A DNA stretch of 64,000 nt from an uncultured virus (IMG/VR IMGVR_UViG_3300025676_000011). Taxonomy: Duplodnaviria > Heunggongvirae > Uroviricota > Caudoviricetes. The translations under genes were made by a program, and so were the position numbers. The notes under the pieces were generated by a model that made no database searches, was not told where the DNA came from, and was given only the letters and a program-made list of their open reading frames with translations. The stretch spans positions 1-64,000 of the IMG/VR virus record IMGVR_UViG_3300025676_000011; one strand, written 5' to 3'. The stretch's first letter is position 1; each line of letters begins with the position of its first letter. Below, in pieces: positions 14,296 to 56,932 of the stretch.

Positions 14296-14379
14296 ATGTT
14301 TGGTCGGATCTCCGAATTTGAGAGAAACCAAATAAGAAAACAGAAAATAAATAAGATACTAAAAAACCCACTCAAATAA
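14296..14379 (+). CDS. 27-aa micro-protein made almost entirely of the R-x-x-K-I-N-x-I-L motif
   Basis: Not in the track. MFGRISEFERNQIRKQKINKILKNPLK lies between the sigma stop codon and the terminator. Confidence 0.5.
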   Translation: MFGRISEFERNQIRKQKINKILKNPLK

Positions 14380-14395
14380 ATGAGTGGGTTTTTTT
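14361..14395. terminator. Bidirectional Rho-independent terminator
   Basis: AAAAAACCCACTCA...TGAGTGGGTTTTTT between convergent genes. Confidence 0.85.
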
Positions 14396-14413
14396 ATTTA
14401 ATATAAATTATAT

Positions 14414-15496
14414 TTATACTGAAACTGGTACTTCACTAAATATCGTCTCTAACATTCTTTCAGTAACTTGGTATGGGTCACAATTAGAAGCTGGTCTTCT
14501 ATCTTCAAAATACCCTTTCTTATCAACAATTGATTGTGCTGGTATTCTAATACTTGTGTCTCTCGTACTGTAACCGTGTGTAAATTCGTGTATAGTTGAA
14601 GTTTCATGTTCTCCTGTCATTCTCTTATCATTCTCTAATCCATATACTGCCATGTGCTCTTTGTGAGTTTCTTTTAATTTCATAACAGCTTCATCTATTA
14701 AAGATAATCCACCTTCTTCTCTCATTTCCTTTGTTGAGAAGTTAACGTGACACCCTGATCCATTCCAATCACCAGTCATTGGCTTTGGGTGTAATGATAC
14801 AATAACATTGTATTTTTCAGCTACCCTTTCTAATAAGTATCTAGATACCCACATTTGGTCACATCCATTTAGTGGTTTCACTGGTCCAATTTGATATTCC
14901 CATTGGCCTAACATAACTTCCGCATTTACTCCTGAGATGTCTAAATCAATTTCTATACACATATTCATATGATCTTCAACTATACCTCTACCAACAACAC
15001 TATCAGATCCTATACCACAATAATAATCTCCTTGTTGTCTTGGTTCACCTTTTTCGAATCCTAATGGTAGTGCTCCATTCGTTCCAAATGGATTTCTATC
15101 TTTCTTCGTTAAAGTGTATTCTTGTTCCCATCCAAACCAAGGTAATTCATCCTTTTCGATTGTTTCGTCTATACCTAGTTCTTCGATTTTTTCTTGTAGT
15201 TTGTTTCTGTGATTACTTTCGTGTTGTGTACCATCTGGGTTTAATACCTCACAAAAAACTAATTTGTTTTGGTCACCTCTAAATGGGTCCTTAGTTATGA
15301 AAACTGGATTTAGTAAACAATCTGTATTCTTCCCCTTTCCCGCTTCTGCTTGTTTTGTTGAACTTCCATCAAATGACCACATTGAGTAGTCTTCCACTTT
15401 TAAGGAATCCTTTGTTTTAATTACTTTTGTTTTACTTCTTAGTTGTTGTGGATTTGACCCATCCAACCATATATACTCTAATTTAATATTTTGCAT
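14414..15496 (-). CDS. glnA: Glutamine synthetase type II
   Basis: EYIWLDG, LRSKT, FDGSST, GVNAEVMLGQWEYQIGP, DWNGSGCHVNFST, GYFEDRRPASNCDPY. Confidence 0.95.
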   Translation of the reverse strand: MQNIKLEYIWLDGSNPQQLRSKTKVIKTKDSLKVEDYSMWSFDGSSTKQAEAGKGKNTDCLLNPVFITKDPFRGDQNKLVFCEVLNPDGTQHESNHRNKLQEKIEELGIDETIEKDELPWFGWEQEYTLTKKDRNPFGTNGALPLGFEKGEPRQQGDYYCGIGSDSVVGRGIVEDHMNMCIEIDLDISGVNAEVMLGQWEYQIGPVKPLNGCDQMWVSRYLLERVAEKYNVIVSLHPKPMTGDWNGSGCHVNFSTKEMREEGGLSLIDEAVMKLKETHKEHMAVYGLENDKRMTGEHETSTIHEFTHGYSTRDTSIRIPAQSIVDKKGYFEDRRPASNCDPYQVTERMLETIFSEVPVSV

Positions 15497-15592
15497 AAAA
15501 ATAGTTTTTGTTTTTGTTTTTATTTTTATTTTTACTTTTTTTTTAAACTTTGTTTACTTTTTAATATAAAAAAACATATATAAAATATAATT

Positions 15593-15889
15593 ATGAATAA
15601 AGTTATTTTACAAATATGGGAAGAATCAGAGAGGGGTCAAGGATCACGGCCTGATGGTTGCTCTTTACACATTGATTTAAATAATCAAAAAAAATATGTA
15701 AAGGATTCTTATGAAGATAGAAGTGGTGATGTTCCTGATACCTATGAAAGAATTGTTGGTGATCCAATAGAGGCTTTTATTGATGATGGTTTATTTGATA
15801 TTATCAATGAAGATAAAAATGTTAGATTATTTGAAAATGAGTTAAATAATCTAATAAAAATGGAAGAAATTATAATAAATCATGATTAA
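15593..15889 (+). CDS. Hypothetical protein
   Basis: ORF track; WEESERG.G.RPDGCSLH looks like a conserved motif. Confidence 0.75.
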   Translation: MNKVILQIWEESERGQGSRPDGCSLHIDLNNQKKYVKDSYEDRSGDVPDTYERIVGDPIEAFIDDGLFDIINEDKNVRLFENELNNLIKMEEIIINHD

Positions 15890-16223
15890 TGTATTTTACA
15901 TATTACCTATTTTATTCATTTTTATGAATGTTTATCATATGCTTAAGAATAAGCAATTAGATAAGAGATTTAGAGAAAGAGATATAATTGGTATGTCAAG
16001 ATTGGATATTATATATTATTTTACTAAAATTTCATATTGGATATGGGTACCAATTGGTTTCTTTACTAATCAACCAGAACTATTCTATGTATTATTTGTT
16101 TTGGGATTTTTGAAATTTCCCACTTACCATTTTAATAAAAATATTTTCAGGATCTATAATGATATATACCCAATTTTTTCTATATCCACACTAATTACAA
16201 TTTTTTTTCATTGGTTGTTTTGA
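15882..16223 (+). CDS. Hypothetical membrane protein
   Basis: Three to four hydrophobic segments. Confidence 0.7.
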   Translation: MINVFYILPILFIFMNVYHMLKNKQLDKRFRERDIIGMSRLDIIYYFTKISYWIWVPIGFFTNQPELFYVLFVLGFLKFPTYHFNKNIFRIYNDIYPIFSISTLITIFFHWLF

Positions 16224-17056
16224 AATTCGTACCATTTTTCAATATTAATAGATTCTGATACATCAAAGTTTTTAAAATTCTTAATTCTTGGTAATCTACC
16301 TTTCCATTTTTTATTTAAAAATAATAGTTTGTTTTTATCAATTTTACAATTTTTATTCGAAATACTACCCTCATTAAAAAGGTTTATCATTTCATCCATA
16401 CTTAATGTTTTATGTTTTTTGTCAAAATTTGGATCCGGATGCGACCATCCAAATTTTACTAACCAATTTAATAAAACTTCTTTACTATATTCTTTGTAAT
16501 CCTCTGTTGTTCCATTACCAGTTCTTTTCGATAGTTTTTTATTACCTTCGAATAAAAGACCAGCATGTGTTATTTCTGGAAATTGTTTATCAGACTCAAC
16601 CTCACAAATTTTATTCCATATTATTCTTTGTTTTATTTCATTAGAAATATGATCTACACCTCTTACTATATTTGTTACGTCATAATCATAATCATCTAAT
16701 ATAGAAGAGAAGTTATAGGTTGGGAATCCATTATTTCTAAGTATAACCATTTCATAACCACCCATATCTAACACATAACCCTTTTCAGTTTTCGTTCCGA
16801 TTTTCTCAGCAACTTCTTTATATCTGTCTAATCTTTCTGATTGTCTAAATGTTATATCACTATCCAAACCAAATTTATTCATTTGATCATAGATATAATC
16901 TATCCATTCTGGTTTATTTCTTTCTTGATCGGTGTCATCAATACGTAGTATGAAAGTACCATTGTTAGCTTTAGCCATTAAATAGTTTAGCAATGCTGTT
17001 CTTAAAGTTCCTAAGTGGAATTGTCCTGTTGGTGACGGAGCTACTCTTGTTATCAT
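16208..17056 (-). CDS. Minimal glutamyl-tRNA synthetase-like protein (catalytic domain only; GluRS / GluQ-RS-like)
   Basis: TRVAPSPTG-HLGT (HIGH motif), LRIDDTD, RQSER, PTYNF, IVRGVDH, KLSKR (KMSKS motif); no anticodon-binding domain. Confidence 0.85.
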   Translation of the reverse strand: MITRVAPSPTGQFHLGTLRTALLNYLMAKANNGTFILRIDDTDQERNKPEWIDYIYDQMNKFGLDSDITFRQSERLDRYKEVAEKIGTKTEKGYVLDMGGYEMVILRNNGFPTYNFSSILDDYDYDVTNIVRGVDHISNEIKQRIIWNKICEVESDKQFPEITHAGLLFEGNKKLSKRTGNGTTEDYKEYSKEVLLNWLVKFGWSHPDPNFDKKHKTLSMDEMINLFNEGSISNKNCKIDKNKLLFLNKKWKGRLPRIKNFKNFDVSESINIEKWYEFQNNQ

Positions 17057-17111
17057 AATAATATTATTTTTACTTATTAAGTATATATTAAAAATAATAT
17101 GAGTAAATTTT

Positions 17112-18401: not shown

Positions 18402-18752
18402 ATGAGAATTTTCAGAAAAAGTAAAAAAGAACTTAGTGGTGATGTAAAACCTATGGGTATTAAATATACAATAGAAAGACCAAGTGAGTCTGATATTGCT
18501 AACTTACAGAGGCAAAGAGAAAATATGAAAAAGCCAATTACTAATAAGGTTGATAAGATGATTTTACAGGATATTTCGGATAGATTATATGGTCCTGATT
18601 CTGATGATTATATTAAATCGTTGAATAAATTGAATAAATTATTTAAACCTAGAGCTGGAAAATCATGTAATGATTTCTTTGATCCAGATATAGTGGAGAA
18701 TGTCAAGAAAAACCAGAAAAAAATAAATGAAATAATAAAACACGAGTCTTAG
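18402..18752 (+). CDS. Hypothetical protein
   Basis: ORF track; followed by a terminator. Confidence 0.7.
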   Translation: MRIFRKSKKELSGDVKPMGIKYTIERPSESDIANLQRQRENMKKPITNKVDKMILQDISDRLYGPDSDDYIKSLNKLNKLFKPRAGKSCNDFFDPDIVENVKKNQKKINEIIKHES

Positions 18753-20572: not shown

Positions 20573-21026
20573 ATGCCGCAGTTTTTGGGTCGGGTATATC
20601 AAAGTAAAATTGTGTTACGCTATTACAACTTGGAAGTTTCATTTGTTTAACTTCTAGTAAACACCCCGATTCTAATATGTTTTTTAATTCTTTACCTTTT
20701 GGTGTATCTAGAACTTTTAATACTATTTTTAACTCATCCACTTTATTATTCGTTATGATAAAAGACATTGACCTAACAAAAAATGATATACTTTTTAATA
20801 ATATATCAGAATATTCTGGTTTTCCTAAACTACCATATACCGGACTATTTATTTTTGATATTTCGGTTACGTCAAATCCAATCCTTTTACCTTCGTTTAA
20901 TAAAACATTAAGTTTTATCTCACGTTTATATTGTATCCATTGTGGAAATTTAGTTAGTAATCGATCATAGTTATTTAACTCAACATCATTTCCTAAAACA
21001 ACATTATATTCTAGTAAATCATCCAT
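20571..21026 (-). CDS. Degenerate prohead-protease (gp21)-like protein carrying the R-x-x-K-L-N motif
   Basis: VYGSLGKPE...KVLDTPKGKELKNILESGC aligns by eye with VYGEFDHPD...KLLSTYWGKEAKALVDDGC of the protease at 23512; the catalytic His and Ser motifs are absent. Confidence 0.65.
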   Translation of the reverse strand: MDDLLEYNVVLGNDVELNNYDRLLTKFPQWIQYKREIKLNVLLNEGKRIGFDVTEISKINSPVYGSLGKPEYSDILLKSISFFVRSMSFIITNNKVDELKIVLKVLDTPKGKELKNILESGCLLEVKQMKLPSCNSVTQFYFDIPDPKTAA

Positions 21027-23511: not shown

Positions 23512-25653
23512 ATGAAACCGGTTTTAATAGTAGAAAATTCACAAAACCAACTTATTAGAGAGAGTAACTCTGCTAATAAGGGGTACACATTAGGTGGTAC
23601 ATTCACCGAATTCGGTGTCAAGAACAGAAATGAACGTATTTATTCGGCTGATAAATTTTTACCAGCATTGAATGAAATGAATGAACGTATAAGTGGCTTA
23701 GGTGCTGTTTATGGTGAATTCGATCATCCAGACGTTTTTGACACATCACTCTCAAGAGCCTCGCATATTATCACAAAGGCAAGTTATATCCAAGAGAAAA
23801 ATATCGTAGCGGGAGAGATTAAATTACTAAGTACTTACTGGGGTAAGGAAGCAAAAGCACTTGTCGATGACGGGTGTCCTGTATTCGTTTCTTCAAGAGC
23901 TGCTGGTATTACTGAATCTGATGGTTCAGTTTCCCTTAAAAAATTATTTACTTATGACATTGTTGCTGACCCAGGATTTGCGTCAGCTAAAATGGATGTT
24001 AAGGTACTTAATGAGTCATTGGGATATAATGACGAAAAATCTAACTTTAGGATATATGAAATGTCCGATGAGTCAAAAATAAATGAGTTATTCAATATGA
24101 ACAAAAATGAGTTTGTAACAAAAAAACAATTGACTGACTACTCTAACTACTTAGTTAACGAATTAGCATCAACTAAGAAGACAGTTAATACAGCCATTAC
24201 TAAAGGTAATGTAGCTCCAAAGAAATTGGAACAATTATTAGAGTATTATGAAGAGTTAAACAACTCTAATTCAAAAGTAGCTAAGTATCTTGATTATTTA
24301 TCAGAAAAGGTACAAATAGTAGTTAATGAGAATAAATCATTAAAGAAGACAACTGAGAAATTAGTTAAACATAATGATTATTTAGCAGAAAACTTAGAGA
24401 AATCTATTAATTACGCTGAGTATTTAGGTGAAAACTTAGATAAGAACATTGATTATTCTGAGTATTTAGCTGAGAATTTAGACAAGAACATATCTTATGC
24501 TGAGTATTTAGCTGAGAATGTTGATAAAAACATTTCATATTCTGAGTATTTAGCTGAGAGTTTAGATAAGAACATTGCTTATTCTGAATATATCGCTGAG
24601 AATTTAGACAAAAACATCGCTTATTCTGAGTATATCGCTGAGAATTTAGACAAAAACATTGCTTACTCTGAGTATATCGCAGAAAACGTTGATAATAATA
24701 TCGCTTATTCTGAATACTTATCTGAGCATGTTGAAGGTAACATTGCTTACTCTGAGTATATCGCAGAACATTTAGATGATAACATCGCTTATTCTGAGTA
24801 TGTAGCAGAGAATCTTGACAAATCAATTAATTATCAAGGATTGATAGTTGAGAGATTAAACGGAGATAAATTATTTGAATCTGTTGAAGGATCTGAAAGC
24901 TTCCCATCTCTAGACGATGCTGGTTTTGAAGCTTTTGATGATGAAGAAAACAAAGATGAAGAAAATTGTAATCTTGAAGTATCATTAGATAATAATGATG
25001 AAGAAAATGGTGTTGAAGAATCTGTTGAGAATACAGATGATTACGCAACAGAAGAAAACAAAGATGAAGAAAATAAAGATGAAGAAAACAAAGAAGATAA
25101 AACTGAAAGCCATGATATGGTAAACGGTGATAGTGATTCTGAATTATCTGAATCTATTGATAAACTAATTGAAGAAGCTAAAAAACGAAAAGTTTCTGAA
25201 ACAACAGATGTGAATTTCTTGAAGTTCATGTCTAAATCACAAGTTGACAGCTTTTACGCTTTGTCAAATGACGAACAAGAGTCAGTTAAAGTCCATATAA
25301 ACGAAAGAGACTACTTTACTCAAAAAGATGTTTTGTTATTGATATCTGAAGCACTATCAACTAAGAACGAATCTCTTGAAGAGAGAATAATCAGATTGAT
25401 GCCTGAAAACACAAAGCCAATCTGGGAACAATTAAACGACACTTCTAAGAAATCTATCTTGTCACAAGCTAGATTATATCCAGAAGACGTTTTAACTACT
25501 GAGGCACAAGTTGAACATTTTTGGTCAACTAGAAAGCTAAAGACAAATGAGTCTGTAACAAAGAAACTTGTATCACATGAAAGCCTTATCCAAGAAGATA
25601 AACTTTCAGATAATGATGTTCAAGCGATAATGGAAAGATTCAAAAATATTTAA
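23512..25653 (+). CDS. Prohead protease (T4 gp21-like) fused to a scaffold/core domain
   Basis: KNRNERIY, GEFDHP, VSSRAAG and YDIVADPGF motifs, then coiled coil, 14-aa repeats and an acidic linker; directly upstream of the capsid gene. Confidence 0.9.
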   Translation: MKPVLIVENSQNQLIRESNSANKGYTLGGTFTEFGVKNRNERIYSADKFLPALNEMNERISGLGAVYGEFDHPDVFDTSLSRASHIITKASYIQEKNIVAGEIKLLSTYWGKEAKALVDDGCPVFVSSRAAGITESDGSVSLKKLFTYDIVADPGFASAKMDVKVLNESLGYNDEKSNFRIYEMSDESKINELFNMNKNEFVTKKQLTDYSNYLVNELASTKKTVNTAITKGNVAPKKLEQLLEYYEELNNSNSKVAKYLDYLSEKVQIVVNENKSLKKTTEKLVKHNDYLAENLEKSINYAEYLGENLDKNIDYSEYLAENLDKNISYAEYLAENVDKNISYSEYLAESLDKNIAYSEYIAENLDKNIAYSEYIAENLDKNIAYSEYIAENVDNNIAYSEYLSEHVEGNIAYSEYIAEHLDDNIAYSEYVAENLDKSINYQGLIVERLNGDKLFESVEGSESFPSLDDAGFEAFDDEENKDEENCNLEVSLDNNDEENGVEESVENTDDYATEENKDEENKDEENKEDKTESHDMVNGDSDSELSESIDKLIEEAKKRKVSETTDVNFLKFMSKSQVDSFYALSNDEQESVKVHINERDYFTQKDVLLLISEALSTKNESLEERIIRLMPENTKPIWEQLNDTSKKSILSQARLYPEDVLTTEAQVEHFWSTRKLKTNESVTKKLVSHESLIQEDKLSDNDVQAIMERFKNI
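24391..24810 (+). repeat. Ten coding 42-bp tandem repeats (consensus NLDKNIAYSEYIAE)
   Basis: Seen in both DNA and translation, with synonymous variation between copies. Confidence 0.95.
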
Positions 25654-27543: not shown

Positions 27544-27933
27544 ATGATTAAAAAGTATAATTATTTCTTTGAGTCTAAGAAGACTAAGTTCCCTAATATT
27601 AAGAAAGTTGAAGTAGAAGGATTCTTTATTCATATAGGTAGAGACTCCAAATCTAACGACCACTTAACATTTAACGTTGCTGATGATAAAGACATCTGGA
27701 TGCACGCTAAGGGTGTTCCTGGGAGTCATGTTATTATAAGAGTTAGAGAAAACTTACCAACTCAAGAAATACTAAGATATGTTGCTGAATTAGCTAAAAA
27801 GAATAGTAAAGCTAGTAAAGAAGATAATGTAACTGTTGTTTATTGCCAAAGAAAATTTGTTAAGAAAGAAAGTGGTATGAATGAGGGTCAAGTAAGAGTT
27901 GATTATATCAATGCCTACGAAATCGTAGTTTGA
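27544..27933 (+). CDS. Stand-alone NFACT-R (RqcH/NEMF RNA-binding, DUF814-like) domain protein
   Basis: IGRDSKSNDHLT, DIWMHAKGVPGSHVII, AAKNSK-like segment, V.Y..RKFVKK...GQV. Confidence 0.85.
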   Translation: MIKKYNYFFESKKTKFPNIKKVEVEGFFIHIGRDSKSNDHLTFNVADDKDIWMHAKGVPGSHVIIRVRENLPTQEILRYVAELAKKNSKASKEDNVTVVYCQRKFVKKESGMNEGQVRVDYINAYEIVV

Positions 27934-27970: not shown

Positions 27971-29326
27971 ATGGCAGGAGAAACTAAAAGAGTAAAATTT
28001 TCGGATAAATTACTAAAGATACTTAAAAGTATGGAGGATAATAATAGTTATCTAGCTTTTGAACTTCTTTGGATGAATGATCCAACTGCAAAATATCATA
28101 ATGGCCTTAATATAACAAATGTTGATTGTGGTACAGATAAATCATCAGATTTTAATTTCACTGTTGTTATTGGTGGTAAGAAAAATATAATGAAAATTGG
28201 TAAATTCATTAGATATTACTTTTCTAATCTATTTAGTAGTGATGAGATAACAAAATTTGCTCATGCTTTCAATAGAGTGAAGAATGGTGGTAAGGCTGAA
28301 CAATCTGGTAAAAAAGTTGAAATACCTGAGTTTAGTTATAATCCAAAAGACCCTAGGTCTACATTCTTATCACTTGTTACAGAAACATACCCACACCCAC
28401 ATGAGGAGAAAGTTATGAAATACTTACCAAAAGACTTAGATAAAGATGAATTTGGTAATTATTATAAAGTGATTCCTGGTGATGATACTACAATGTTTAG
28501 TTCTCACCTTGATACGGCTGATAGAAGTCCAGTTCCTACTAACCTATTCACTAAAGAGGTAGATGGGGATGAGATAATCTATACTGATGGTAGTACAATA
28601 TTAGGGGCTGATGATAAGTCTGGAGTTACTGTTATGATGTATATGATGGTTCATAATATCCCAGGTATTTATTATTTCTTTATTGGTGAAGAAAGAGGTG
28701 GTATTGGTTCTAATCAATTAGCTGATGTTTATGATAAATTTGATTTCCTAAAAAATGTTAAGAAATGTATTTCTTTTGATAGAAGAAGAACAATTTCTGT
28801 TATAACACATCAAATGGGTGGTCGTTGTTGTTCTGATGCTTTTGGTACAGGACTTTGTAAAGAGTACAATAAACAAGGACTTAACCTTTCATTGGATAAT
28901 GGTGGCGTTTATACTGATTCTGCTTCATTTATGGATATTATTCCTGAGTGTACTAATTTATCTGTTGGTTATTTAAATGAACACACAGGTAGAGAAGAAC
29001 AAAACATGACATTTTTAATACAGTTGTGTAAAACTTCTATTAATGTTGATTGGGCTGGATTACCAGTTGCTAGAAAAGTAGGTTTGAACCTTGATTTAGT
29101 GCAGAAGCACAAATCTTTAATTGATGTTATAAAAAATGCAGTATTTGAATTAGAGGTGAAGATGGTTGGGTTTGAGGATAAAATATATATAAGAATAGAT
29201 TTAGATGATACTAATCTAGTAACTGTTTATGATACTTTGAATATTGTACAAAACTTACTTGATAAACATAAAGTAGATAGTATGTGTATTTTTACTGAAA
29301 CATATCTTAAAATAGAATTAACATAA
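27971..29326 (+). CDS. M20/M28-family Zn metallopeptidase with N- and C-terminal extensions
   Basis: SHLDT, LGADDKSG, GEERGGIGS, SFDRR, YTDS, GYLNEHT. Confidence 0.85.
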   Translation: MAGETKRVKFSDKLLKILKSMEDNNSYLAFELLWMNDPTAKYHNGLNITNVDCGTDKSSDFNFTVVIGGKKNIMKIGKFIRYYFSNLFSSDEITKFAHAFNRVKNGGKAEQSGKKVEIPEFSYNPKDPRSTFLSLVTETYPHPHEEKVMKYLPKDLDKDEFGNYYKVIPGDDTTMFSSHLDTADRSPVPTNLFTKEVDGDEIIYTDGSTILGADDKSGVTVMMYMMVHNIPGIYYFFIGEERGGIGSNQLADVYDKFDFLKNVKKCISFDRRRTISVITHQMGGRCCSDAFGTGLCKEYNKQGLNLSLDNGGVYTDSASFMDIIPECTNLSVGYLNEHTGREEQNMTFLIQLCKTSINVDWAGLPVARKVGLNLDLVQKHKSLIDVIKNAVFELEVKMVGFEDKIYIRIDLDDTNLVTVYDTLNIVQNLLDKHKVDSMCIFTETYLKIELT

Positions 29327-30401: not shown

Positions 30402-30878
30402 ATGATTAATAAATTCGAAGGTCGCTGGAGATTTCTATCAAACTTCTATCCGTGTGTGGTAGAACACCAAGGTATATCATATCCATCAAATGAACATTAT
30501 TATGTTGCTATGAAAGTGACGGATGAACAATTTATTAATGGTAGATATTATACCGCTGGTGATTTCAGAGAAATGATAGCGACAATACCAAGTGCTGCTA
30601 TTGCTAAAAAGTTAGGACAGAAAATAAAGGTTCGTAAAGATTGGGAAGTTAAGAAGATTGAATTTATGAACTGGGGTGTTAGAGAAAAATTTAATAACAA
30701 CTCAACTCTTCGAGAATTATTATTATCAACTGGTGACGATGAACTAATCGAGGGTAATTTTCATAAAGATACTTTTTGGGGAGTTTGTAATGGAAAGGGT
30801 AAAAACCATCTTGGTAAAATTCTTATGGAAGTAAGAAGAGAGTTGAGAGGTGAGAAGAGAGTTGGTCTGTTTATTTGA
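30402..30878 (+). CDS. NADAR (YbiA-like) family protein
   Basis: FLSNFY, EHYY.AMK, AKKLG, R.DW, KF, LLSTG..ELIEGN..DTFWG, G.NHLGKILMEVR. Confidence 0.9.
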   Translation: MINKFEGRWRFLSNFYPCVVEHQGISYPSNEHYYVAMKVTDEQFINGRYYTAGDFREMIATIPSAAIAKKLGQKIKVRKDWEVKKIEFMNWGVREKFNNNSTLRELLLSTGDDELIEGNFHKDTFWGVCNGKGKNHLGKILMEVRRELRGEKRVGLFI

Positions 30879-32677: not shown

Positions 32678-32882
32678 TAATACATTCCAGGTGAATTCGG
32701 CTTCTAATAAAAATGCTATTGTGGTTGATCCAGATGGATACACAACTATTGATAAATTAATACTTGTTGATCAAAAAGATGGAACTAAGTGGGATTTTTC
32801 AATTTATGATGGTGAGGTATTAGTTGAGCCACATGGTAAATCAGAAAAAAGAGAATATAGAATCAATAAGGTTATTTCTTAA
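32661..32882 (+). CDS. Small beta-rich hypothetical protein with C-terminal REYRINKVI motif
   Basis: ORF track; overlaps the upstream gene. Confidence 0.65.
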   Translation: MAQQINNTFQVNSASNKNAIVVDPDGYTTIDKLILVDQKDGTKWDFSIYDGEVLVEPHGKSEKREYRINKVIS

Positions 32883-42972: not shown

Positions 42973-45900
42973 TTAGTTTAATTCCTCTACATTCTGAATC
43001 TTTCCATCACTCGCATCTTGTATAAATTCATCTATTGTGTTTGTTGATTTGTCAATATTTGTCAATAATCCTATTAATAAATCCAGTTGTTGTGGTATTG
43101 ATCTACCTTCTAAACCATACTTAGTTTTATCTGTAAGATTAGGTAACTTAACATTCTTTTTACCAACTGATTCTGGTTTATCTTCTCCACCCCATAATCC
43201 GGTAAATTTACCGAGGTCATCCATTGGGTGCCATCCACCATCATTCTCACTTTTTATTTGACTTAAATCATTTGCTAATTGATCAGTTTGAAGAGATTTA
43301 ACTTCCTTTAGCTTTTCCATGTTGATTGCTTCTAAAGCAATTCCAAATTTCTCAAAAGAGGTGGTTAATATATCATATGAATCCGCTAATACAACCATAC
43401 CACCTGCAATTCTCATTATTGGATCCTCTCCAAATCCAAATGCGCCAGCAACACTACCCAAGAAGGATCCTTCTTTTTCTTCGACTCTTGTTAAATACTC
43501 AGCTAATCTAGTATAGTCTATTATATTTCTGCTTAATTTCTTTATAAAGAGAGGGTCTATTTTAACATCAAAATATTTTTTATTTTTATAAAAAATATAA
43601 GCTGTGTTTGCCATAGCTTGTGCTACTCTATCAATAATACCCATATCTTTTTCAGTTCTAACCACTTCCGTTTTCGTACTCGTCTTAGCACCGAAACCAG
43701 CAAATCCTCCTGATTTACTACTTGTAGTTTTTGTTGAAGTAGTTACTAACATATCATCAAGCCATTTTCCCAACTTTGCGAATCCCATTACATTCGTAGC
43801 TATATTTGGTATAAATTTTGGATCTAGTTTAACTGCAAAATATCTTTTATTATCAAAAAGAATACGGGCTGTGTTTGCCATTGATTGAACACCACCCTCC
43901 AACATTGAGGAGTTCACAGAAAAACTGTATTCGCTGTATCCAGCCATAGTTAAATCATAAAATATATCTAAAAAGGAATTTATCGCCTTTCGAATACCGA
44001 TACCCCATGCTTCATCAGGATGATTTTGCCAATATTCTTTCCCAACACTCCCTAGTGTTTCTCCAGCACTCCTTATAGATCTAGCTATGATTCTTATCCC
44101 AGATCCTAGTGATTGTGCTACTTCCTCTTGGCTTGGTCCAGTCCATCCACCACCATTTGTCATCATCAGATTAAAGACTTCCGAGAACGATCCAATTGCT
44201 TCTGCAACACCTTTACCCCAACCTTTACCAGGAACATTGTCCTTTTTCCATATTTCTGGGATAGTGTCATAAAATATCCAACCCGCATCAACTATCGCCC
44301 TTGAAACCGATCGAATTCCGTAACTCATTGCCTTTATTGTCGTAACAGACGAAGAATACCAGCTCGTATTGTTCATAGCTTCAAATACTGGTGCAAATGA
44401 GTTAATTGCTGCTCCAACACCTTCTCCCCAACGTTTTTTTGGATAGTTTTTCTTAAATGCTGCTTTATTTTCTGCGAATATACCCGCTGCATCTATAATA
44501 GCATAAGATATAGATCGGATAGCTCTTTCCATATCAGCTACTGATGGTCCATTGGACCACCCTCCTTGATTGTTCAAAACCTCATATACTGGTGCGAATG
44601 CGCCAATTGCTGTTCCAACCCCTTCGGCCCAACGTTTTGATGGTCCATCCTTGAATTGGTCACTCGCTCCGGAAAATTTATCAGCGGCTGATATAATACC
44701 ATCAGAAACCGTTGTGATAGCATTCGTAAAATCATCAGGACCTACACCACTACCACCAAGTATTGACATTATAGAATTCATCTGCATCATTTTATAAATA
44801 GGCATAAATGCTCCTAATGCTATCGATATTCCTTCTGCCCACTCTTTTGTTGGACCACCTTTATAATTTCCCTTATAAAGAGTATGTGATACGGCTACTA
44901 TTGTATCTGCTATCGTCAACATCATACCCTGTGCTACTAAAAATGGATCATCTCCTCCGAAGAATGAAATAATAGCACCCGCTACACTCATGACACCCAA
45001 TGCCATTATAATTGGTGTAAATGTTAAATATAATAATGCTGTAGCTGTTGCCCATTCTAACATACCTGCATTATCATATTTACCCTTGGATAGAATATCT
45101 GATACTTTTGCTATAGTAGCAGCTACAACTAGTATAGCACCTAAACCAGCTAAAAATATTAGTGCTTGTGGACCAAATACCATCAGACCCAAGAGTATAG
45201 CGGCGGTAGCCATAACTGTCATAGCTAAGGCCACTCCGGCTAACCACTCTATACCTGGGTAGGTTTCATAAGTACCTAATGCTTGAATGTAATCCAATGC
45301 TACAATAGCAAGTGCTACAACTAGTATAGCAACTAAACCAGCTAAAAATACTAGTGCTTGTGGACCAAATACAAACGATCCTAAGAGTACAGCAGCGACA
45401 CCCATCGCTACCATACTTAAACCTACTCCGATTATCCAATCTAAACCTGGATATGTATCATAATTACCTAATGCTAAAATGTGTGATGTTACCATTACTG
45501 CTACCGCTATAATCAAAATTGCTAATCCACCTTTTAATAGATCAACAACACCCATCTTACTTAATACCTTCATTGGTCCGACTAATGCAATAGTAAGACC
45601 GGCCATTAATACACCAATTGCTGCTATTTTAAGTATTAGTCCCCAACTTATATCAGCGGTTAATGCTAAAATGTGTGATGATACCATAATCGCTATTGAT
45701 ATCAATGTAAAGAATATTGGTATTTTAGGGAGTGATGACCATTCCATTTTATTCATTGCTTTAACTATTTTTACCATCCCAAATGATAAAACAACAAATA
45801 ATATTGCTATAAGTACTGATGTAAACCATTGCATAAGACCCACTGGTTGTACTAAAGAGAGTGCGTATGATGCTCCTGCTATACCTAGTGCGATAGCTGG

Positions 45901-46797
45901 TAGAATTAATGGTAAGAAAATAGATGCTTGTATTAAATCTTTGGTACCCATTCCCTTAAATGCTTGTAACATATTTCTAATACCATATGATACTACTGCG
46001 AATATTGCCGCTATGAATATAGATGCTATTACTTGTGAGAATCCTATTGGTTGTACTAATCCTAATGCGTATGATGCGAGAGCAATACCTAATGCGATAG
46101 CTGGTAAAATCAATGGTAAGAAAAGAACAGATTTCACTATACTGGCCATTGATAGACCCTTAAATGCTCCTAATAATTTTCTAATACCAAATGCAATTAC
46201 CGAAAATACACCAGCTACAAAAACAGCGGTTATTGCTTGCATAAATGATATAGGCCTTATCATTGATAATGCGTAAGATGAAAGAGCTACTGCTATTGAC
46301 ATAAATACCATAGCTAAAGAAGCCAGAGCTATATCTTTTAATGAGGATCCTTTGGTCGCTTCCGCCACTTGAGCAAACGCGAATCCTATTGCTACCATAG
46401 CTAATCCTAAACCAATAGCTGATAAAACATCAACCGGTCCGACTAATTTCAACGCTAATCCTATTGCTAAAACAGCTACTGCTATTAGTAATATAGTACC
46501 AACACCTTTTTTAATACTACTTTCTTTCTTCTTATCAGTACCACTTTCCTCAATAACATCCTTAGATTTCTCTTTGGAAAGAGCTATTATTGTTTTCTGA
46601 TTGGTTAAAATTTCTTGAGTATCAGTTTTAATTGATTGTATACCTACGTTTATGGCTTCTAATTTCTTACCAAAATCACCTCCTTTTAATGCAGCGCCTG
46701 TTGCAGAAGCACCATCTTTCTTACTATCGAGAGCTGCCGCTATCATTTCTAATGAAACTGATAAATTGTCTAATGCTTTTAATAATTGCTTATCCAT
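42973..46797 (-). CDS. Tape-measure-like / membrane-interacting virion protein
   Basis: 1274 aa, Ala/Gly-rich hydrophobic helical repeats, repeated P.K.WAEGVG.AIGAFAPVY units. Confidence 0.6.
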   Translation of the reverse strand: MDKQLLKALDNLSVSLEMIAAALDSKKDGASATGAALKGGDFGKKLEAINVGIQSIKTDTQEILTNQKTIIALSKEKSKDVIEESGTDKKKESSIKKGVGTILLIAVAVLAIGLALKLVGPVDVLSAIGLGLAMVAIGFAFAQVAEATKGSSLKDIALASLAMVFMSIAVALSSYALSMIRPISFMQAITAVFVAGVFSVIAFGIRKLLGAFKGLSMASIVKSVLFLPLILPAIALGIALASYALGLVQPIGFSQVIASIFIAAIFAVVSYGIRNMLQAFKGMGTKDLIQASIFLPLILPAIALGIAGASYALSLVQPVGLMQWFTSVLIAILFVVLSFGMVKIVKAMNKMEWSSLPKIPIFFTLISIAIMVSSHILALTADISWGLILKIAAIGVLMAGLTIALVGPMKVLSKMGVVDLLKGGLAILIIAVAVMVTSHILALGNYDTYPGLDWIIGVGLSMVAMGVAAVLLGSFVFGPQALVFLAGLVAILVVALAIVALDYIQALGTYETYPGIEWLAGVALAMTVMATAAILLGLMVFGPQALIFLAGLGAILVVAATIAKVSDILSKGKYDNAGMLEWATATALLYLTFTPIIMALGVMSVAGAIISFFGGDDPFLVAQGMMLTIADTIVAVSHTLYKGNYKGGPTKEWAEGISIALGAFMPIYKMMQMNSIMSILGGSGVGPDDFTNAITTVSDGIISAADKFSGASDQFKDGPSKRWAEGVGTAIGAFAPVYEVLNNQGGWSNGPSVADMERAIRSISYAIIDAAGIFAENKAAFKKNYPKKRWGEGVGAAINSFAPVFEAMNNTSWYSSSVTTIKAMSYGIRSVSRAIVDAGWIFYDTIPEIWKKDNVPGKGWGKGVAEAIGSFSEVFNLMMTNGGGWTGPSQEEVAQSLGSGIRIIARSIRSAGETLGSVGKEYWQNHPDEAWGIGIRKAINSFLDIFYDLTMAGYSEYSFSVNSSMLEGGVQSMANTARILFDNKRYFAVKLDPKFIPNIATNVMGFAKLGKWLDDMLVTTSTKTTSSKSGGFAGFGAKTSTKTEVVRTEKDMGIIDRVAQAMANTAYIFYKNKKYFDVKIDPLFIKKLSRNIIDYTRLAEYLTRVEEKEGSFLGSVAGAFGFGEDPIMRIAGGMVVLADSYDILTTSFEKFGIALEAINMEKLKEVKSLQTDQLANDLSQIKSENDGGWHPMDDLGKFTGLWGGEDKPESVGKKNVKLPNLTDKTKYGLEGRSIPQQLDLLIGLLTNIDKSTNTIDEFIQDASDGKIQNVEELN

Positions 46798-48969: not shown

Positions 48970-49160
48970 TGATTGATATTAAAATGACCTCTGTCGAGGT
49001 AAAGGCCGAAGTACGCGAACTAAAATGTAAATATACTCGTGAAATGGCTAAGGATATACACTATTATAGTGGTTTAGATCCTTTTAGTATGGATAATAGA
49101 AGAACAACAAGAAAAGATTCGATTAATAATATTTTTAATATAACAAAACATGATAAATAA
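48969..49160 (+). CDS. 63-aa gp23 capsid-fragment-like protein with RKDSINNIF motif
   Basis: IKMTSVEVKAEVRELKCKYTREMAKDIHYYSGLD resembles the gp23 segment ..V.A..R.LKA..T.E.AQDL...G.D. Confidence 0.6.
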   Translation: MIDIKMTSVEVKAEVRELKCKYTREMAKDIHYYSGLDPFSMDNRRTTRKDSINNIFNITKHDK

Positions 49161-51139: not shown

Positions 51140-51935
51140 TCTCAAACCAAACAATTCGATTCTCGAATGTTGGTGTTTCTTTTATAAAATAAGTTTGATA
51201 ATTATCTCCGTTATTAACATTGTTAACAACATTTAATCCTGTACATCTCTCACCTTTTGGTCTTACTCCGATTACTTTACTTGGATTTATTTTACTTGAG
51301 TGTATTACTTGAGCCCCATTTATATTACCTATGATGTCATCATAATTATTTGATAAATTAAAATTATATGATGTTGATAATAAGTATTCTACTATATTAT
51401 CTCCTATAATAAATGCGGTAGCGGGACCTAAGTTACTTTTCATAGATAAAACATTACTAATAAATGTCATCTTTGTGATTATTCTTCTGGAATCAGCATC
51501 TGATTGTTCATTTGTTGTTAAAAATTTATCATTTTTTAATTTAAGAGTTACGTCTGTGTAAAATTTACATTTTTTCATTGGTTTACTTGTTAAAGTATCC
51601 AATGTTGATATAATATCATTATATAATAATGCTTCACTTATGAATTTTTTAGCAGTTACATTTTGCGACATCATTCTTGTTGAGAATGTTCCAATTGTAT
51701 CCAACCCATCATAAATACCTTGCGGTAACCAATCCATATCATCATATTCTTCTTGTTTTTCAGCAAGAACAGAATTTATAGATGATTGTCTATGTCTTCT
51801 TTTGAGTTCATTCATTATCCACTCATCATCAGATGATAAAGTATCCGTATAATAAATAACACCCTTGGGTAAAGAGGGTTTATTATTTTCTGTGTAATTA
51901 CATATCAATTTTATATTAGACAGCAAGGTGCTCAT
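51132..51935 (-). CDS. Divergent capsid-protein-fragment paralog with RQSSINSVL motif
   Basis: SRRIITKMTFISNVLSMKSNLGPATAFII...IGNING aligns with QRKLVTKIAHASNYIATEGRVGPAQYLIT...VGSIGD of the capsid protein. Confidence 0.65.
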   Translation of the reverse strand: MSTLLSNIKLICNYTENNKPSLPKGVIYYTDTLSSDDEWIMNELKRRHRQSSINSVLAEKQEEYDDMDWLPQGIYDGLDTIGTFSTRMMSQNVTAKKFISEALLYNDIISTLDTLTSKPMKKCKFYTDVTLKLKNDKFLTTNEQSDADSRRIITKMTFISNVLSMKSNLGPATAFIIGDNIVEYLLSTSYNFNLSNNYDDIIGNINGAQVIHSSKINPSKVIGVRPKGERCTGLNVVNNVNNGDNYQTYFIKETPTFENRIVWFEIS

Positions 51936-52788: not shown

Positions 52789-53193
52789 ATGGATAAAAAA
52801 GTAGGAAGATTTGAAAAAATATTTTTTCCTGAACTAAATATAAAAGTGGATTCTAAAATAGACACTGGTGCTTATAGCGTTTCTTTACACGTTGAGGATA
52901 TCAACGAAGTGGATGGTAAATTATACTTCTGGGTTGGTGATGAATCTAATAAATTCATATATGATGATTTTAATATTATTAGTGTTAAGAGTTCTTTTGG
53001 TAAAAATCAAAAAAGATATTCTATAAAATTGAAGATGCATCTGGGTAAACTTACCTATGATGTTTTCGTATCACTGAGTGATAGAAAAAAAATGAAGTTT
53101 CCTTGTTTGATAGGTAGAAAATTTCTACATAAACACGGATTTTTGGTAGATGTGAGAAAAAAGAATTTACATGATAGAAATAAAAAAATGTAA
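52789..53193 (+). CDS. RimK-associated retropepsin-like (putative ATP-dependent Zn) protease
   Basis: KIDTGAYSVSLH, VKSSFG...R, LSDRKKMKFPCLIGRKFL. Confidence 0.85.
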   Translation: MDKKVGRFEKIFFPELNIKVDSKIDTGAYSVSLHVEDINEVDGKLYFWVGDESNKFIYDDFNIISVKSSFGKNQKRYSIKLKMHLGKLTYDVFVSLSDRKKMKFPCLIGRKFLHKHGFLVDVRKKNLHDRNKKM

Positions 53194-53710
53194 TTATTTT
53201 ACTGGTGATAATAGCATCTCTGATGGTATTAAAGATATTGTTAATTTTTTAGAATTATCAGGCAGAAATTATTTGCTATTAACTCCACCTAAAAATAGTG
53301 ACATTGATAAATCAACACAAACAAATACAATAAAATATTATTTGGATAATCAATTACACTTTAATAACTTTGTTGAGTTTGTTGATATTATAGAAAATGA
53401 AGGCAATTTATTTAGGGTTGATTTGTTGGTTTTGGATTTTTGGCATTTAACACCTATTGAGATATCTATTTGGAAAAAAGAAATTGATAAATTGGGATTA
53501 GACCATTTGATAATAGCTAAAGAATATCACTATAAATCTACTGATGATGTTACAGACTATCATCTTAGAAGAGAGTATAAAACGGTTGGTAAAAATGAAT
53601 TATTTATAACTGATAATATAAATAAATGGACATCAACTTTAGAATCTTTAATAAAATCTTATAGAAGAGATAAGAAAATCAATGATATATTTGGTGGAAC
53701 TGATAATTAG
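53171..53710 (+). CDS. Hypothetical protein (possible degenerate RecA/P-loop fold) with C-terminal RDKKINDIF motif
   Basis: VDLLVLDF is Walker-B-like; no intact Walker A. Confidence 0.55.
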   Translation: MIEIKKCNYFTGDNSISDGIKDIVNFLELSGRNYLLLTPPKNSDIDKSTQTNTIKYYLDNQLHFNNFVEFVDIIENEGNLFRVDLLVLDFWHLTPIEISIWKKEIDKLGLDHLIIAKEYHYKSTDDVTDYHLRREYKTVGKNELFITDNINKWTSTLESLIKSYRRDKKINDIFGGTDN

Positions 53711-53745: not shown

Positions 53746-54828
53746 ATGAGAACTAGACGAAAATTTATTAAACTAACAAAGTTTACATATCCATATGGAA
53801 CCGAAAATCAATTAAAAAAATTCTTACCGAAGGGATATACAGAAGATGAGCATGGTAATTTCTATTTGAAGATTGGTGATAAACCATCTACTATGTTTAC
53901 TTGTCACCTTGATACGGCTTGTGCTGAACAAGAAAGAGTTAATCATGTATTTCGTGGTAAGTTTGTTGGTACTGATGGGACTACAATTTTAGGAGCTGAT
54001 GATAAAGCCGGAATGGTTATTATCTTATCACTTATCGAAAAAAAAGTACCTGGACTTTATTACTTCTTTATTGGAGAGGAAGTTGGGTGTATTGGTTCAA
54101 ACGCACTTTCCGGAACTTGGTTAAAAACTGAATTCTCTGAATACATTACAAAATGTGTATCTTTTGATAGAAGAGGTACTACTTCTGTTATTACAGAACA
54201 ATTGTATGGTAGATGTGCGTCTGATGAATTCGCAACTGAACTTTCACTTAGATTAAATAATGTTGGTAAATTTAATTTCTCACCTGATGATACTGGAGTT
54301 CTAACAGACTCAATTAACTTTATGGATTTTGTACCGGAGTGTACTAATATATCTGTTGGTTATTATAATGAACATGGTGGTGATGAAATCCAAGATTTGG
54401 ATTTCTTGAAGAAATTAAGTAAAGCTGTTTGTGAAATTGATTGGGAAACACTTCCAATTAAAAGAGATCCAATATCTGATTTTGATGATGATGATGATGA
54501 TTTACATGAGTATGAAGAAGATGGTAAATTCTCAACAGAGTTCTATTCATACTTTAAGAGTAAAGAAGATGTGAAGAAAATGTATATATCTATTAATCAT
54601 ATAGAATCCGAAAAAGCTGAAATACGCAATTGGTTATATGTGAGTGGTTCTTATCCTGGATTTACTGATATTTTATGGAATGGCCATAAATTAAGAGTTA
54701 AAATTAATGATGATATAGAAGTTGTTGGTGATAGAATTGAGTTAATTGATTTGATGCCGGAATTAGGATCTGTTCCTAAAAGTCAATTAAGTGCTAGTGT
54801 TAAAAAATATAGAAGTATTGTGATGTAA
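53746..54828 (+). CDS. M20/M28-family Zn metallopeptidase, paralog of 27971..29326
   Basis: CHLDTA, LGADDKAG, GEEVGCIGS, SFDRR, LTDS, GYYNEH. Confidence 0.85.
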   Translation: MRTRRKFIKLTKFTYPYGTENQLKKFLPKGYTEDEHGNFYLKIGDKPSTMFTCHLDTACAEQERVNHVFRGKFVGTDGTTILGADDKAGMVIILSLIEKKVPGLYYFFIGEEVGCIGSNALSGTWLKTEFSEYITKCVSFDRRGTTSVITEQLYGRCASDEFATELSLRLNNVGKFNFSPDDTGVLTDSINFMDFVPECTNISVGYYNEHGGDEIQDLDFLKKLSKAVCEIDWETLPIKRDPISDFDDDDDDLHEYEEDGKFSTEFYSYFKSKEDVKKMYISINHIESEKAEIRNWLYVSGSYPGFTDILWNGHKLRVKINDDIEVVGDRIELIDLMPELGSVPKSQLSASVKKYRSIVM

Positions 54829-55502: not shown

Positions 55503-55504
55503 AA

Positions 55505-55912
55505 TTAAATTAAAAATATATATATGAACACTTGTAAAGAAACACCAAATAAAACCATTGGTGTTTTCTTTTTATCTTGTTCTGAAGGTGGTAAATGCAC
55601 ATGTGTCTCTGTTATTGAATTTTTATCCAATTTTTTAATTGTTTGTTCAAATATTATTCTATGAAAATACTTGAACATAAAAATTTGTGCTATTATAAAT
55701 GGTATTGATACCCATCCAATTGTATATGTTAATAATGTCCCAGTCGTTAATAACACTAAAAATCTTTGAATATTGAATATTTTTTTAGCACAAAATTCAG
55801 AACTCCTTTTATTTTTACTCTTGATATGTTCAAAAAAACCTTCCCGTAAACCTTCCGACATAGAATAAAGTATCCAGATTAAGTTTGTTATTGTTATTGC
55901 TATAAAATCCAT
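55505..55912 (-). CDS. Hypothetical membrane protein
   Basis: Several hydrophobic segments. Confidence 0.7.
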   Translation of the reverse strand: MDFIAITITNLIWILYSMSEGLREGFFEHIKSKNKRSSEFCAKKIFNIQRFLVLLTTGTLLTYTIGWVSIPFIIAQIFMFKYFHRIIFEQTIKKLDKNSITETHVHLPPSEQDKKKTPMVLFGVSLQVFIYIFLI

Positions 55913-55931
55913 ACTTATAAACTTCTGCTTT

Positions 55932-55963
55932 TTTGTATATATTAAATATAATAACTATATTTG
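55932..55963 (+). promoter_or_regulatory. Bacteroidota-type promoter TTTG-N20-TATATTTG
   Basis: TTTG at 55932 and TATATTTG at 55956, 4 nt before the ATG at 55968. Confidence 0.7.
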
Positions 55964-55967
55964 TTGT

Positions 55968-56426
55968 ATGTTTGAAATAAAAGGTAAAATAGTATTCGAT
56001 CCAATCGATAAAACTAAGAAGCACTCTAAGCAGTCTTCCTGGAAGAAAGTCGTTATGATCGAGTTCAAGGATGATACTTGGTCTTACTATTCTTGGTTTT
56101 TAAAAAAAAGATTTGGACTAGTCTTGAATAAACCACTTCGAGGAACCCACTTTACTATTATTAACGATATTGTTGATGATGTAATATACAAACAAGCTAA
56201 GAAAATGTTTGATGGTACTGAAATAACAATTCAATACGATCCAACAAATATACGTTCTAATGATAAAGGTCACTGGTGGATAAAGGCTTATTCTGATGAT
56301 GCTATAAATATAAGAAGTGTTATGGGATTGGGTGATCCTTATTTCGGTTTCCACATTACTATGGGATTAGCTACTAACACACAATTAGAACACTCTAAAT
56401 ATATTAAACAATATTTGAGATTGTAA
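55968..56426 (+). CDS. 2H-phosphoesterase-family protein
   Basis: Two H-x-T motifs (GTHFTI, GFHITM) about 70 aa apart in a 152-aa protein. Confidence 0.65.
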   Translation: MFEIKGKIVFDPIDKTKKHSKQSSWKKVVMIEFKDDTWSYYSWFLKKRFGLVLNKPLRGTHFTIINDIVDDVIYKQAKKMFDGTEITIQYDPTNIRSNDKGHWWIKAYSDDAINIRSVMGLGDPYFGFHITMGLATNTQLEHSKYIKQYLRL

Positions 56427-56455
56427 ACTAAAATAATAATACCACTATAATCTAT

Positions 56456-56932
56456 GTGGTTAATAATCTAAGAAATATAATTATTGGTGATACCAATGTA
56501 GGAAAATCTACTTATTTGTATCAAATAGCAAACACATTAAATAAATGTGGGTATTCGGTATGCCTTATTGATGGTGATGGGTCTGGTATATCAAACCCTA
56601 TTGATAATGATGTTATAAACCTTGTGAATAAGAATGATGTTAGGTTATTTAAGATGGTAAATAATATTGATGATATTGATGTTATTTTAATTGATGATAT
56701 TGGATATTTATCTTCTGAGTGTATATCTGAGGTTTCTGATAGTAAAAAGGTTATTATATCAATTTGTTTCAAGGACTGGGGATCCAAACTGAATAAGTTT
56801 GTTGAAAAAAGTGAAATATTTAAATTGACTAAGACAACAATTGAGTATAATAATTCTATTATAGATAGAAATGGATATTTATTACAATCAATAAGAGAAA
56901 CAAAACTAAAATACTTATTAAATGAAAAATAG
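56456..56932 (+). CDS. Small P-loop NTPase-like protein with C-terminal RETKLKYLL motif
   Basis: GDTNVGKST Walker A and VILIDD Walker B. Confidence 0.65.
   Translation: MVNNLRNIIIGDTNVGKSTYLYQIANTLNKCGYSVCLIDGDGSGISNPIDNDVINLVNKNDVRLFKMVNNIDDIDVILIDDIGYLSSECISEVSDSKKVIISICFKDWGSKLNKFVEKSEIFKLTKTTIEYNNSIIDRNGYLLQSIRETKLKYLLNEK

Follow-up and report, generated by a model that had tools for sequence, protein, structure and literature searches.

The stretch of DNA considered here (hereafter 'the window') is the first 64 kb (64,000 nucleotides) of a 76.9-kb viral record, IMG/VR IMGVR_UViG_3300025676_000011, estimated to be 19% complete, in which a set of otherwise unrelated open reading frames (ORFs) carry one short helical peptide, mostly at the C-terminus and called here the 'tag'. 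The window has a G+C content of ~29% and is rich in Lys, Ile and Asn. PHROG and Pfam searches identify T4-type head, neck, replication and late-transcription genes, among them terminase, portal, a protease-scaffold fusion, a 576-residue gp23-like capsid protein, a clamp loader, a short gp55 and the N-terminal half of a DNA polymerase. The gene content points to a fragment of a T4-like phage, putatively of the 'Mahaphage' type, a lineage with genomes of ~635 kb. The main text of PMC7162821 places the largest genomes, all >634 kb, in the 'Mahaphage' clade and gives Bacteroidetes as the predicted hosts. The closest complete relative is LR745206 (635 kb), followed by LR756502 (642 kb), both unannotated records; the window's capsid protein is 78% identical to that of the former and 73% to that of the latter, compared with ~52% for LR756504 and LR756501 and ~30% for Lak phages. 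Gene order is colinear between the window and positions 165-265 kb of LR745206. A greedy caller yielded 93 ORFs in the whole record and 965 of at least 45 residues in LR745206; ORFs of the window are designated below by their first coordinate.

The tag is an amphipathic helix of ~12 residues with the consensus h-R-[DE]-x-K-[IL]-[ND]-x-[IL]-[LIF], after which 0-8 residues usually follow. A sequence-only reading of the window had listed it in eight ORFs, plus a weak ninth, and all the peptides that it quoted are present where it placed them. Its regular expression R..[KRS][IL]N.[ILV][LIF] serves here as the strict motif. In the six-frame translation of the window this motif occurs seven times, five of them at most 7 residues from the end of the open frame. 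Across the ORFs of the whole record, seven matches were observed against 0.12 expected from 200 within-protein shuffles, and four of them fall at most 12 residues from the C-terminus (0.01 in the shuffles). The same comparison in LR745206 gives 46 matches against 0.84 (sd 0.87, maximum 4, 200 shuffles), with 37 of the 46 at most 12 residues from the C-terminus against 0.06. The shuffling proposed in the sequence-only reading thus places the motif far above chance, with a terminal bias.

With a broader pattern, 108 of the 965 LR745206 ORFs are tagged, 90 at the C-terminus and 18 internally or near the N-terminus, so that a free end is not needed. The usual C-terminal position asserted earlier therefore stands, with ORFs 20571 and 51132, where the tag lies near the N-terminus, departing from it. 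Tagged genes occupy all 25-kb bins of LR745206 and amount to ~90-108 proteins per 635-kb genome, or ~1/10 of the proteome, carriers being mostly small. The dispersed family of the sequence-only reading is real, but its size was underestimated, since it has ~90-108 members genome-wide and not eight. It is also modular: once the tag is masked, the 108 proteins fall into 107 BLASTP components, which rules out a paralogous family with a conserved end. No PHROG family (E ≤ 1e-4) is found for 97 of the 100 tagged LR745206 proteins scanned, and a Pfam scan of 107 of them (E ≤ 0.01) yields above-cut-off domains in three only, namely two helicases and one RNA ligase, whose tag copies are internal. Adjacency of tagged genes is modestly enriched (23 pairs versus 14.3, P 0.008) and 68 of the 108 stand alone; on these grounds the idea that the tag pairs the products of neighbouring genes was rejected. 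At the DNA level, a back-translated pattern with its reversed form as control gives 44 matches in LR745206, 38 in LR756502 and 4 in the window's 77-kb record (control 0 in each), compared with 1 in LR756504 (control 1), 2 in LR756501 (control 1), 0 in LR756500 (control 1) and 0 in both Lak-B5 and PTm1 (control 0 in each). In the 100 kb of LR756504 looked at, the C-termini of several small proteins show a looser form, R-x-x-[KR]-I-x-x-L-L. A literature search found no account of such a tag, and the main text of PMC7162821, supplements aside, does not contain the word 'C-terminal'.

Selection acts on the peptide, as deduced from the free variation of its codons: third positions carry little information, the choice among Arg, Leu and Ile codons roughly follows genome frequencies, and Arg is written as AGA, AGG, CGT or CGA at such frequencies. 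The same variation led to rejection of the tag as a DNA-level motif (promoter, terminator or start region). The tag, or a close variant, is kept in 14 of 14 orthologues (from LR745206 and LR756502) of the eight window ORFs of at least 45 residues, and it is retained in orthologues whose bodies have drifted to ~30-35% identity. Relative to LR745206, dN/dS of these eight ORFs ranges from 0.19 to 0.57, most untagged neighbours being at ~0.1-0.2, with dS near saturation; such values denote fast-evolving genes and not neutral wreckage, and the decay of pseudogenes (dN/dS ~1) considered in the sequence-only reading is not seen. A hidden Markov model (HMM) built solely from LR745206 tags gives as its top six in the window's record ORFs 53171, 31925, 32661, 20571, 56456 and 48969 (18.5 to 9.1 bits), with 18402 weak (4.9 bits) and 51132 at ~0 bits. 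Judged by sequence, the first six are solid tag carriers, and 51132 and 18402 are weak variants.

Tagged genes also tend to avoid late transcription units. A late-type box, [AT]ATATATA[AC], inferred in this analysis from the upstream regions of nine structural genes, marks the units of 15 of 90 C-tagged genes versus 272 of 829 other genes (P 0.0017). A TAnnTTTG box, which we take to be the Bacteroidetes (host-type) promoter element, precedes 15 of 53 tag-bearing units versus 40 of 323 others (P 0.005). Late units are favoured by a second, N-terminal tag of the approximate form M-K-[YH]-L-K-x-F-N-E(-S), found in 46 of the 965 LR745206 proteins and in 14 of 93 in the window's record and never together with the C-terminal tag; 34 of the 46 N-tagged genes are in late-type units (P 4e-8). 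This N-terminal tag ends in Glu, as does the putative propeptide site of the capsid protein, and in one N-tagged protein the Glu is followed by the same Gly/Ser-rich stretch that follows the I-N-E site in the capsid protein. It looks like an analogue of the T4 capsid targeting sequence (CTS), a role that it fits better than the C-terminal tag because of its late association and of its Glu end; on that view the C-terminal tag would have another function. The positions of all these features are collected in Table 1.

Table 1. Tag-bearing ORFs of the window, with the untagged and N-tagged genes discussed alongside them
Feature	Position	Strand	Tag and remarks
Short gp55-like late sigma factor, 121 residues	13909..14274	+	PHROG assignment; immediately upstream of the tag-only ORF
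Tag-only ORF, 27 residues	14296..14379	+	Tag 14335-14361 (IRKQKINKIL); between gp55 and an intrinsic terminator
Orphan, 116 residues	18402..18752	+	Weak variant NQKKINEII, ~18711-18737; 4.9 bits
Protease-like protein, 151 residues	20571..21026	-	Tag near N-terminus, 20898-20924 (KREIKLNVLL)
Prohead protease + repeat-rich scaffold-like region	23512..25653	+	Best tag-HMM score 2.0 bits (noise)
True major capsid protein, gp23-like, 576 residues	25739..27469	+	No tag-HMM match
Compact HK97-fold capsid-like protein, 250 residues	31925..32677	+	C-terminal tag 32633-32659 (QRDIKINSLL)
Orphan, 73 residues	32661..32882	+	C-terminal tag 32850-32876 (KREYRINKVI); overlaps the 31925 gene
Weakly gp23-like piece followed by tag, 63 residues	48969..49160	+	Tag 49110-49136 (TRKDSINNIF)
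Compact HK97-fold protein, 267 residues	51132..51935	-	Divergent tag-like helix near N-terminus, 51765-51791 (HRQSSINSVL)
Orphan, 179 residues	53171..53710	+	C-terminal tag 53666-53692 (RRDKKINDIF); top HMM score 18.5 bits
Putative small P-loop NTPase, 158 residues	56456..56932	+	C-terminal variant RETKLKYLL, 56894-56920
N-tagged ORFs, window	8066, 8733, 9754, 27544, 33351(-), 34345(-), 47323, 58630		N-terminal tag
N-tagged ORFs, rest of record	64212-74922		N-terminal tag

Among the carriers, a few are related to head proteins. ORF 31925 aligns by BLASTP with residues 439-546 of the window's capsid protein (E 2e-13) and ORF 51132 with the same protein at E 0.012. The AlphaFold model of 31925 has a pLDDT of 67.5, its other four models being poor, and Foldseek relates it to 201 PDB chains (E ≤ 0.001), including T4 gp23 and gp24 (TM ~0.5), small phage capsids and encapsulins. 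For 51132 (pLDDT 73.2, pTM 0.71, five models at 69.7-73.2), 124 chains are retrieved at the same threshold, led by T4 prohead gp23. As all Foldseek matches listed for the two proteins are capsid or encapsulin shells, the models being of moderate confidence, 31925 and 51132 are whole compact capsid folds and not fragments; at the confidence of these models, both have the HK97 fold. Their tags are conserved as well. The block QLQRDIKI.S.LD of 31925, whose orthologue occurs only in genomes with the strict tag dialect, has its named positions invariant in nine homologues of 58-94% identity. The tag of 51132 lies within a helix spanning residues 35-57, in and next to which K45, R49, I53, L57 and E59 are invariant in 13 homologues, despite the HMM score of ~0 bits. 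ORF 48969 matches Pfam Gp23 (PF07068) with E 1.1e-4 and 22.1 bits, under the 24.4-bit cut-off (E 3.7e-5 in a six-frame search), and the match of its orthologue is likewise weak. ORF 31925 (11.1 bits, six-frame) scores below it as well, and so does 51132, which is matched only via its LR756502 orthologue (17 bits). Finally, ORF 20571 aligns with the window's prohead protease over residues 65-122 (BLASTP E 1.25e-4). In this alignment the DHP block of the protease reads GKP, with Lys for the conserved His, and the VSSRA (Ser) block is absent; the two blocks presumably hold the catalytic residues, and 20571 appears to be a catalytically dead protease-like domain. The conserved His and Ser blocks of S77 prohead proteases are accordingly missing from it. 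Its tag is kept in the LR745206 and LR756502 orthologues, the aligned LR756504 (L006) row has Lys for Arg, and its dN/dS is 0.57.

The real capsid protein and protease, said from the outset to be untagged, are confirmed as such by the tag HMM. Within the protease fusion, about a dozen tandem 14-residue repeats (Y-S-E-Y-I-A-E-N-L-D-K-N-I-A) are followed by an acidic tail, and three of these scaffold repeats recur in a tagged LR745206 protein of 83 residues (460435-460686).

The link between tag and head proteins was surveyed more broadly. In an unbiased six-frame Pfam Gp23 search of the window's record and LR745206, all five of the extra weak matches fall in tagged ORFs, for a base rate of ~10%, and two more small ORFs (in LR756502 and LR756504), whose sole support is a sub-threshold Gp23 match, carry tag variants. 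Of 13 small partial paralogues of large proteins, the four that are head-derived include two with the canonical tag, whereas the pattern occurs in none of the nine others, one of which ends in a tag-like peptide. Only ~6 of the 108 tagged LR745206 proteins are head-like. Head-derived carriers are thus a genuine but small subset, and the proposal that half of the carriers are copies of head proteins reflects a local sampling effect, 97 of 100 having no PHROG family in the relative. As for the four truncated or dead head homologues announced in the window, their head link is real (two HK97 folds, a sub-threshold gp23 piece and a protease-like domain), but 31925 and 51132 are not broken.

The remaining carriers of the window have no head likeness. 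One had been described as little more than the tag, which holds for the 27 residues of ORF 14296. Its counterpart in LR745206 has 53 residues and lies in a different frame relative to gp55; between the two, the part upstream of the tag shows many substitutions and indels, while the three substitutions in tag codons are all synonymous, and ORF 14296 is probably a real tiny gene. The adjoining gp55 protein is 100% identical to that of LR745206, with synonymous sites saturated. T4 gp55 has 185 residues and ends in a clamp-binding peptide, whereas the window's gp55 has neither a clamp-binding end nor the tag. A joining of gp55 to the tag by recoding was considered and rejected, given that the frames differ between the two genomes and that two stop codons intervene in the window. 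In ORF 32661, the named positions of the tag block EKR..RI.K.IS are invariant in eight homologues, and the overlap of this gene with 31925 is conserved in three genomes. ORF 53171 is flanked by genes for a retropepsin-like protease and a peptidase, keeps its tag in two of two orthologues and received no family from PHROG, Pfam or Atlas searches. ORF 56456 displays visible Walker A and B motifs, with Pfam CbiA, ParA and AAA_24 all below cut-off and nothing usable from a PDB sequence search; its orthologues end in RELKLNTLL and RELKINNVL. Hence, of the two reduced P-loop folds suggested in the sequence-only reading, 56456 is weakly supported and 53171, with no family detected, is not. Lastly, the orthologue of 18402 reads RQRKINDSI at the tag (dN/dS 0.53).

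Taken together, we regard as fairly probable that the tag is a portable docking handle for one common reader, the docking signal and the single reader being what we infer from these observations. The lineage attaches the helix to ~1/10 of its proteins, mostly small, fast-evolving, non-late orphans, and the helix would tether each body to one hub protein, encoded either by the phage or by its Bacteroidota host. A minority of the bodies derive from head proteins, namely the two mini HK97 folds, the gp23-like pieces and the dead protease-like domain. The nearest precedent among T4-type phages is the sliding clamp, to which an interchangeable C-terminal peptide ties gp43, gp33 and gp55. In this respect, the earlier idea of a modular tag with a common partner is borne out as to modularity, the tag occurring on unrelated bodies (107 components), while the common partner is presumed.

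Several points weigh against such a docking handle. No reader was found among the candidates examined (clamp, Clp system and MoxR/vWA), and no clamp gene was recognized in profile and query searches. The canonical clamp clients of the relative LR745206 are devoid of the tag, the C-terminal half of its polymerase ending in ...VVMDIFGGFK and a 133-residue protein in ...KLDFLFD, and the T4 clamp peptides are not scored at all by the tag HMM. The avoidance of late units relies on a promoter motif that was self-inferred from the upstream regions of nine structural genes, and a looser, T4-type late motif, TATA[AT]ATA, does not separate the gene classes. Moreover, an exact TATAAATA box lies upstream of the unit holding 51132, so that some tagged genes may be late. 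The ORF set itself comes uncurated from the greedy caller.

Two routes to the reader were closed in the course of the search. A MoxR AAA+/vWA pair was rejected, since no MoxR (PF07726) match reaches 27 bits in four records; the weak PF07726 matches fall in the ClpC-like gene and in a phrog_1297 ATPase, and the sole vWA signal is sub-threshold, in a 483-residue protein at 71131-72582 of the record, outside the window. By eye this protein looks Ro60/TROVE-like, and an array of N-tagged small genes follows it. Presence/absence profiling was abandoned too: LR756504, LR756501, LR756500, Lak-B5 and PTm1 have next to no copies of the strict DNA pattern, and the profile does not discriminate because LR756504 has a looser tag dialect.

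Among the more specific accounts of the tag, the first would make it a lineage variant of the T4 clamp-binding peptide, hanging ~100 proteins on the phage or host clamp as PIP boxes do on PCNA; we hold this to be unlikely. In parts of PMC2988020 devoted to it, the T4 clamp-binding C-terminal peptide of gp43, gp33 and gp55 is described as portable and interchangeable. The C-termini given in the T4 record, ...SLDFLFG, ...SLDFLYEAND and ...TLDFLL, share with the tag an h-[D/N]-x-h-h core at the protein end, so that both core and position match gp43, gp55 and gp33. The window's gene arrangement is suggestive too, with a 121-residue gp55 deprived of its clamp peptide directly followed by the tag-only ORF and a clamp loader encoded at 10320-11279, and tag-like internal copies occur in the two helicases and the RNA ligase. 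However, the tag-only ORF is in the gp55 frame in the window only, and there after two stop codons. The tag differs from the T4 peptides by an added invariant Arg and a Lys, is basic and not acidic, and sits on ~100 orphans while being absent from the polymerase; the HMM does not cross-score. Polymerase and the 133-residue protein, which is of unknown family and whose gp33 role is a guess, keep acidic peptides of the T4 type. As to the clamp, Pfam PF02916 has no match in the window's record, the control genomes being also without match, and PF09116, a T4 gp45 query and PHROGs run on 119 proteins of 195-275 residues returned nothing. The family B DNA polymerase is itself split, with its N-terminal half at 59700-61238 of the window and its C-terminal half at 130568-131992 of LR745206, ~100 kb off.

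A second account, which we consider unlikely as well, has the tag docking proteins or their targets on an AAA+ protease, for timed removal of early proteins or for targeted degradation, in the manner of SspB on ClpX. The C-terminal peptide of SspB binds ClpX and exemplifies a terminal docking peptide that links a variable body to one machine. The lineage does have two to three ClpP genes as well as a ClpC-like ATPase of 701 residues, ClpS is encoded at 6139-6420 of the window, and the carriers are mostly non-late, fast-evolving and small. Yet the likeness to SspB is limited to the terminal docking peptide and the phage Clp genes, with no sequence likeness shown, and the N-domain that could receive a tether is missing from the ClpC-like protein. 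The tag, being a structured helix that is functional at internal positions too, does not resemble a classical terminal degron. In addition, Clp presence does not track the tag, because LR756504 has Clp genes but only the looser dialect. Parts of Iyer et al. (PMC7824862) mention Clp-type genes and, in those parts, no tag. Proteolysis genes of the window comprise, besides ClpS, a retropepsin-like PF05618 protease (52789-53193) and two peptidases (53746-54828 and 27971-29326); the peptidases are paralogous (48% identical, phrog_4191) and one has a late-type box upstream.

In the model of the sequence-only reading, baits mimicking head proteins titrate capsid or protease sensors of the host, or poison rival phages, and the tag recruits an effector. 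What speaks for it is the concentration of head-like pieces among tagged ORFs: all five extra six-frame Gp23 matches against a base rate of ~10%, the two small weak-Gp23 ORFs of LR756502 and LR756504 with tag variants, the tagged scaffold-repeat piece of LR745206 and the tagged protease-like protein. Nevertheless, no more than ~6 of 108 tagged proteins are head-like. Head-like bodies evolve fast and share at most ~30% identity with the capsid protein of the phage itself, which makes them poor mimics, and a bait that faithfully copies a virion protein fits them badly. Two of the supposed fragments have the full HK97 fold, and a role as minor or vertex capsid proteins would suit them equally well. 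We therefore judge this model improbable.

No better placed, and improbable too in our view, is a capsid-targeting or cargo-loading signal that would bring proteins inside the prohead, or inside a small shell made of the mini HK97 proteins. Parts of PMC3012670 set out the T4 CTS concept, in which one short conserved peptide is found on diverse, unrelated, fast-evolving internal proteins. The tag shares with it a short peptide on diverse bodies, but is mainly C-terminal (90/108) and carried by non-late genes. The T4 CTS is N-terminal, is cleaved and acts in late prohead assembly. Encapsulin cargo peptides are C-terminal, common to unrelated cargo and read by an HK97-fold shell protein. Here the likeness lies in a C-terminal peptide and in a mini HK97-fold gene adjoining one tagged gene, the overlap of 32661 with 31925 being conserved in three genomes, and encapsulins are among the fold matches of 31925, whose orthologue is limited to strict-dialect genomes; the other head-like carriers (gp23-like pieces and the protease-like domain) would also suit such a signal. 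The layout of cargo beside shell is not found, however, tagged genes being dispersed genome-wide and both mini HK97 proteins, including the shell-like one, being tagged themselves. Furthermore, LR756504 has tags and no 31925 orthologue, C-tagged genes are depleted from late-type units (15/90 versus 272/829), and the separate N-terminal tag, with 34 of 46 genes late-associated and its Glu end, is the better candidate for a CTS.

That the tag is an artefact of chance or composition in a Lys/Ile/Asn-rich genome of ~29% G+C, or a DNA-level signal (promoter, terminator or start region) read in frame, is scarcely credible and already refuted by the shuffles (0.84 versus 46 observed), the reversed-pattern controls (0 versus 44) and the free variation of synonymous codons; the distance from tag to stop, 0 to 8 codons, and the 18 of 108 internal tags also speak against it.

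The docking handle read by one common partner, which is the reading retained here, can be extended to a proteome-wide tethering, which in this full form is a long shot. Some 100 early, diversifying proteins, each with its own target-binding body, would plug their C-terminal helix into a single hub, for which a clamp-like platform and the Clp protease of the phage itself are candidates. The bodies, such as the mini capsid-fold and dead-protease modules, would be interchangeable adaptors bringing components of the host or of rival phages to one machine, and the tag-only mini-protein encoded beside the late sigma factor gene could compete for the hub and switch the system off. Were the reader a clamp or a protease hub, phages would possess an equivalent of PIP-box or adaptor-tether logic, and its extent would be unreported among bacterial viruses. 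Independently of such an extension, most genes of huge phages are orphans, and a shared label assigns some 100 orphans in each genome to a single functional class. The tag peptide offers a direct handle, usable as bait, toward the reader, and the mini capsid-fold and dead-protease carriers attest to the reuse of head genes in the tag system.

Other genes of the window are recorded here for completeness. Two giant orphans have no PHROG or Pfam match, namely 34996-40863 (1955 residues) and 42973-46797 on the minus strand (1274 residues), the former being well conserved (81% identity, dN/dS 0.14). Auxiliary genes recognized with Pfam encode a glutamine-synthetase-like protein (14414-15496, minus strand), a truncated Glu/Gln-tRNA-synthetase catalytic domain (16208-17056, minus strand), an NFACT-R RNA-binding protein (27544-27933) and a NADAR domain protein (30402-30878). 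Finally, the unrelated proteins encoded at 887-1240 and 59086-59502 (minus strand) have similar ends of the form ...I-D-S-L-S/D-K...-L, with a weak match to Pfam DUF6576 (26.9 bits versus a cut-off of 27.3).

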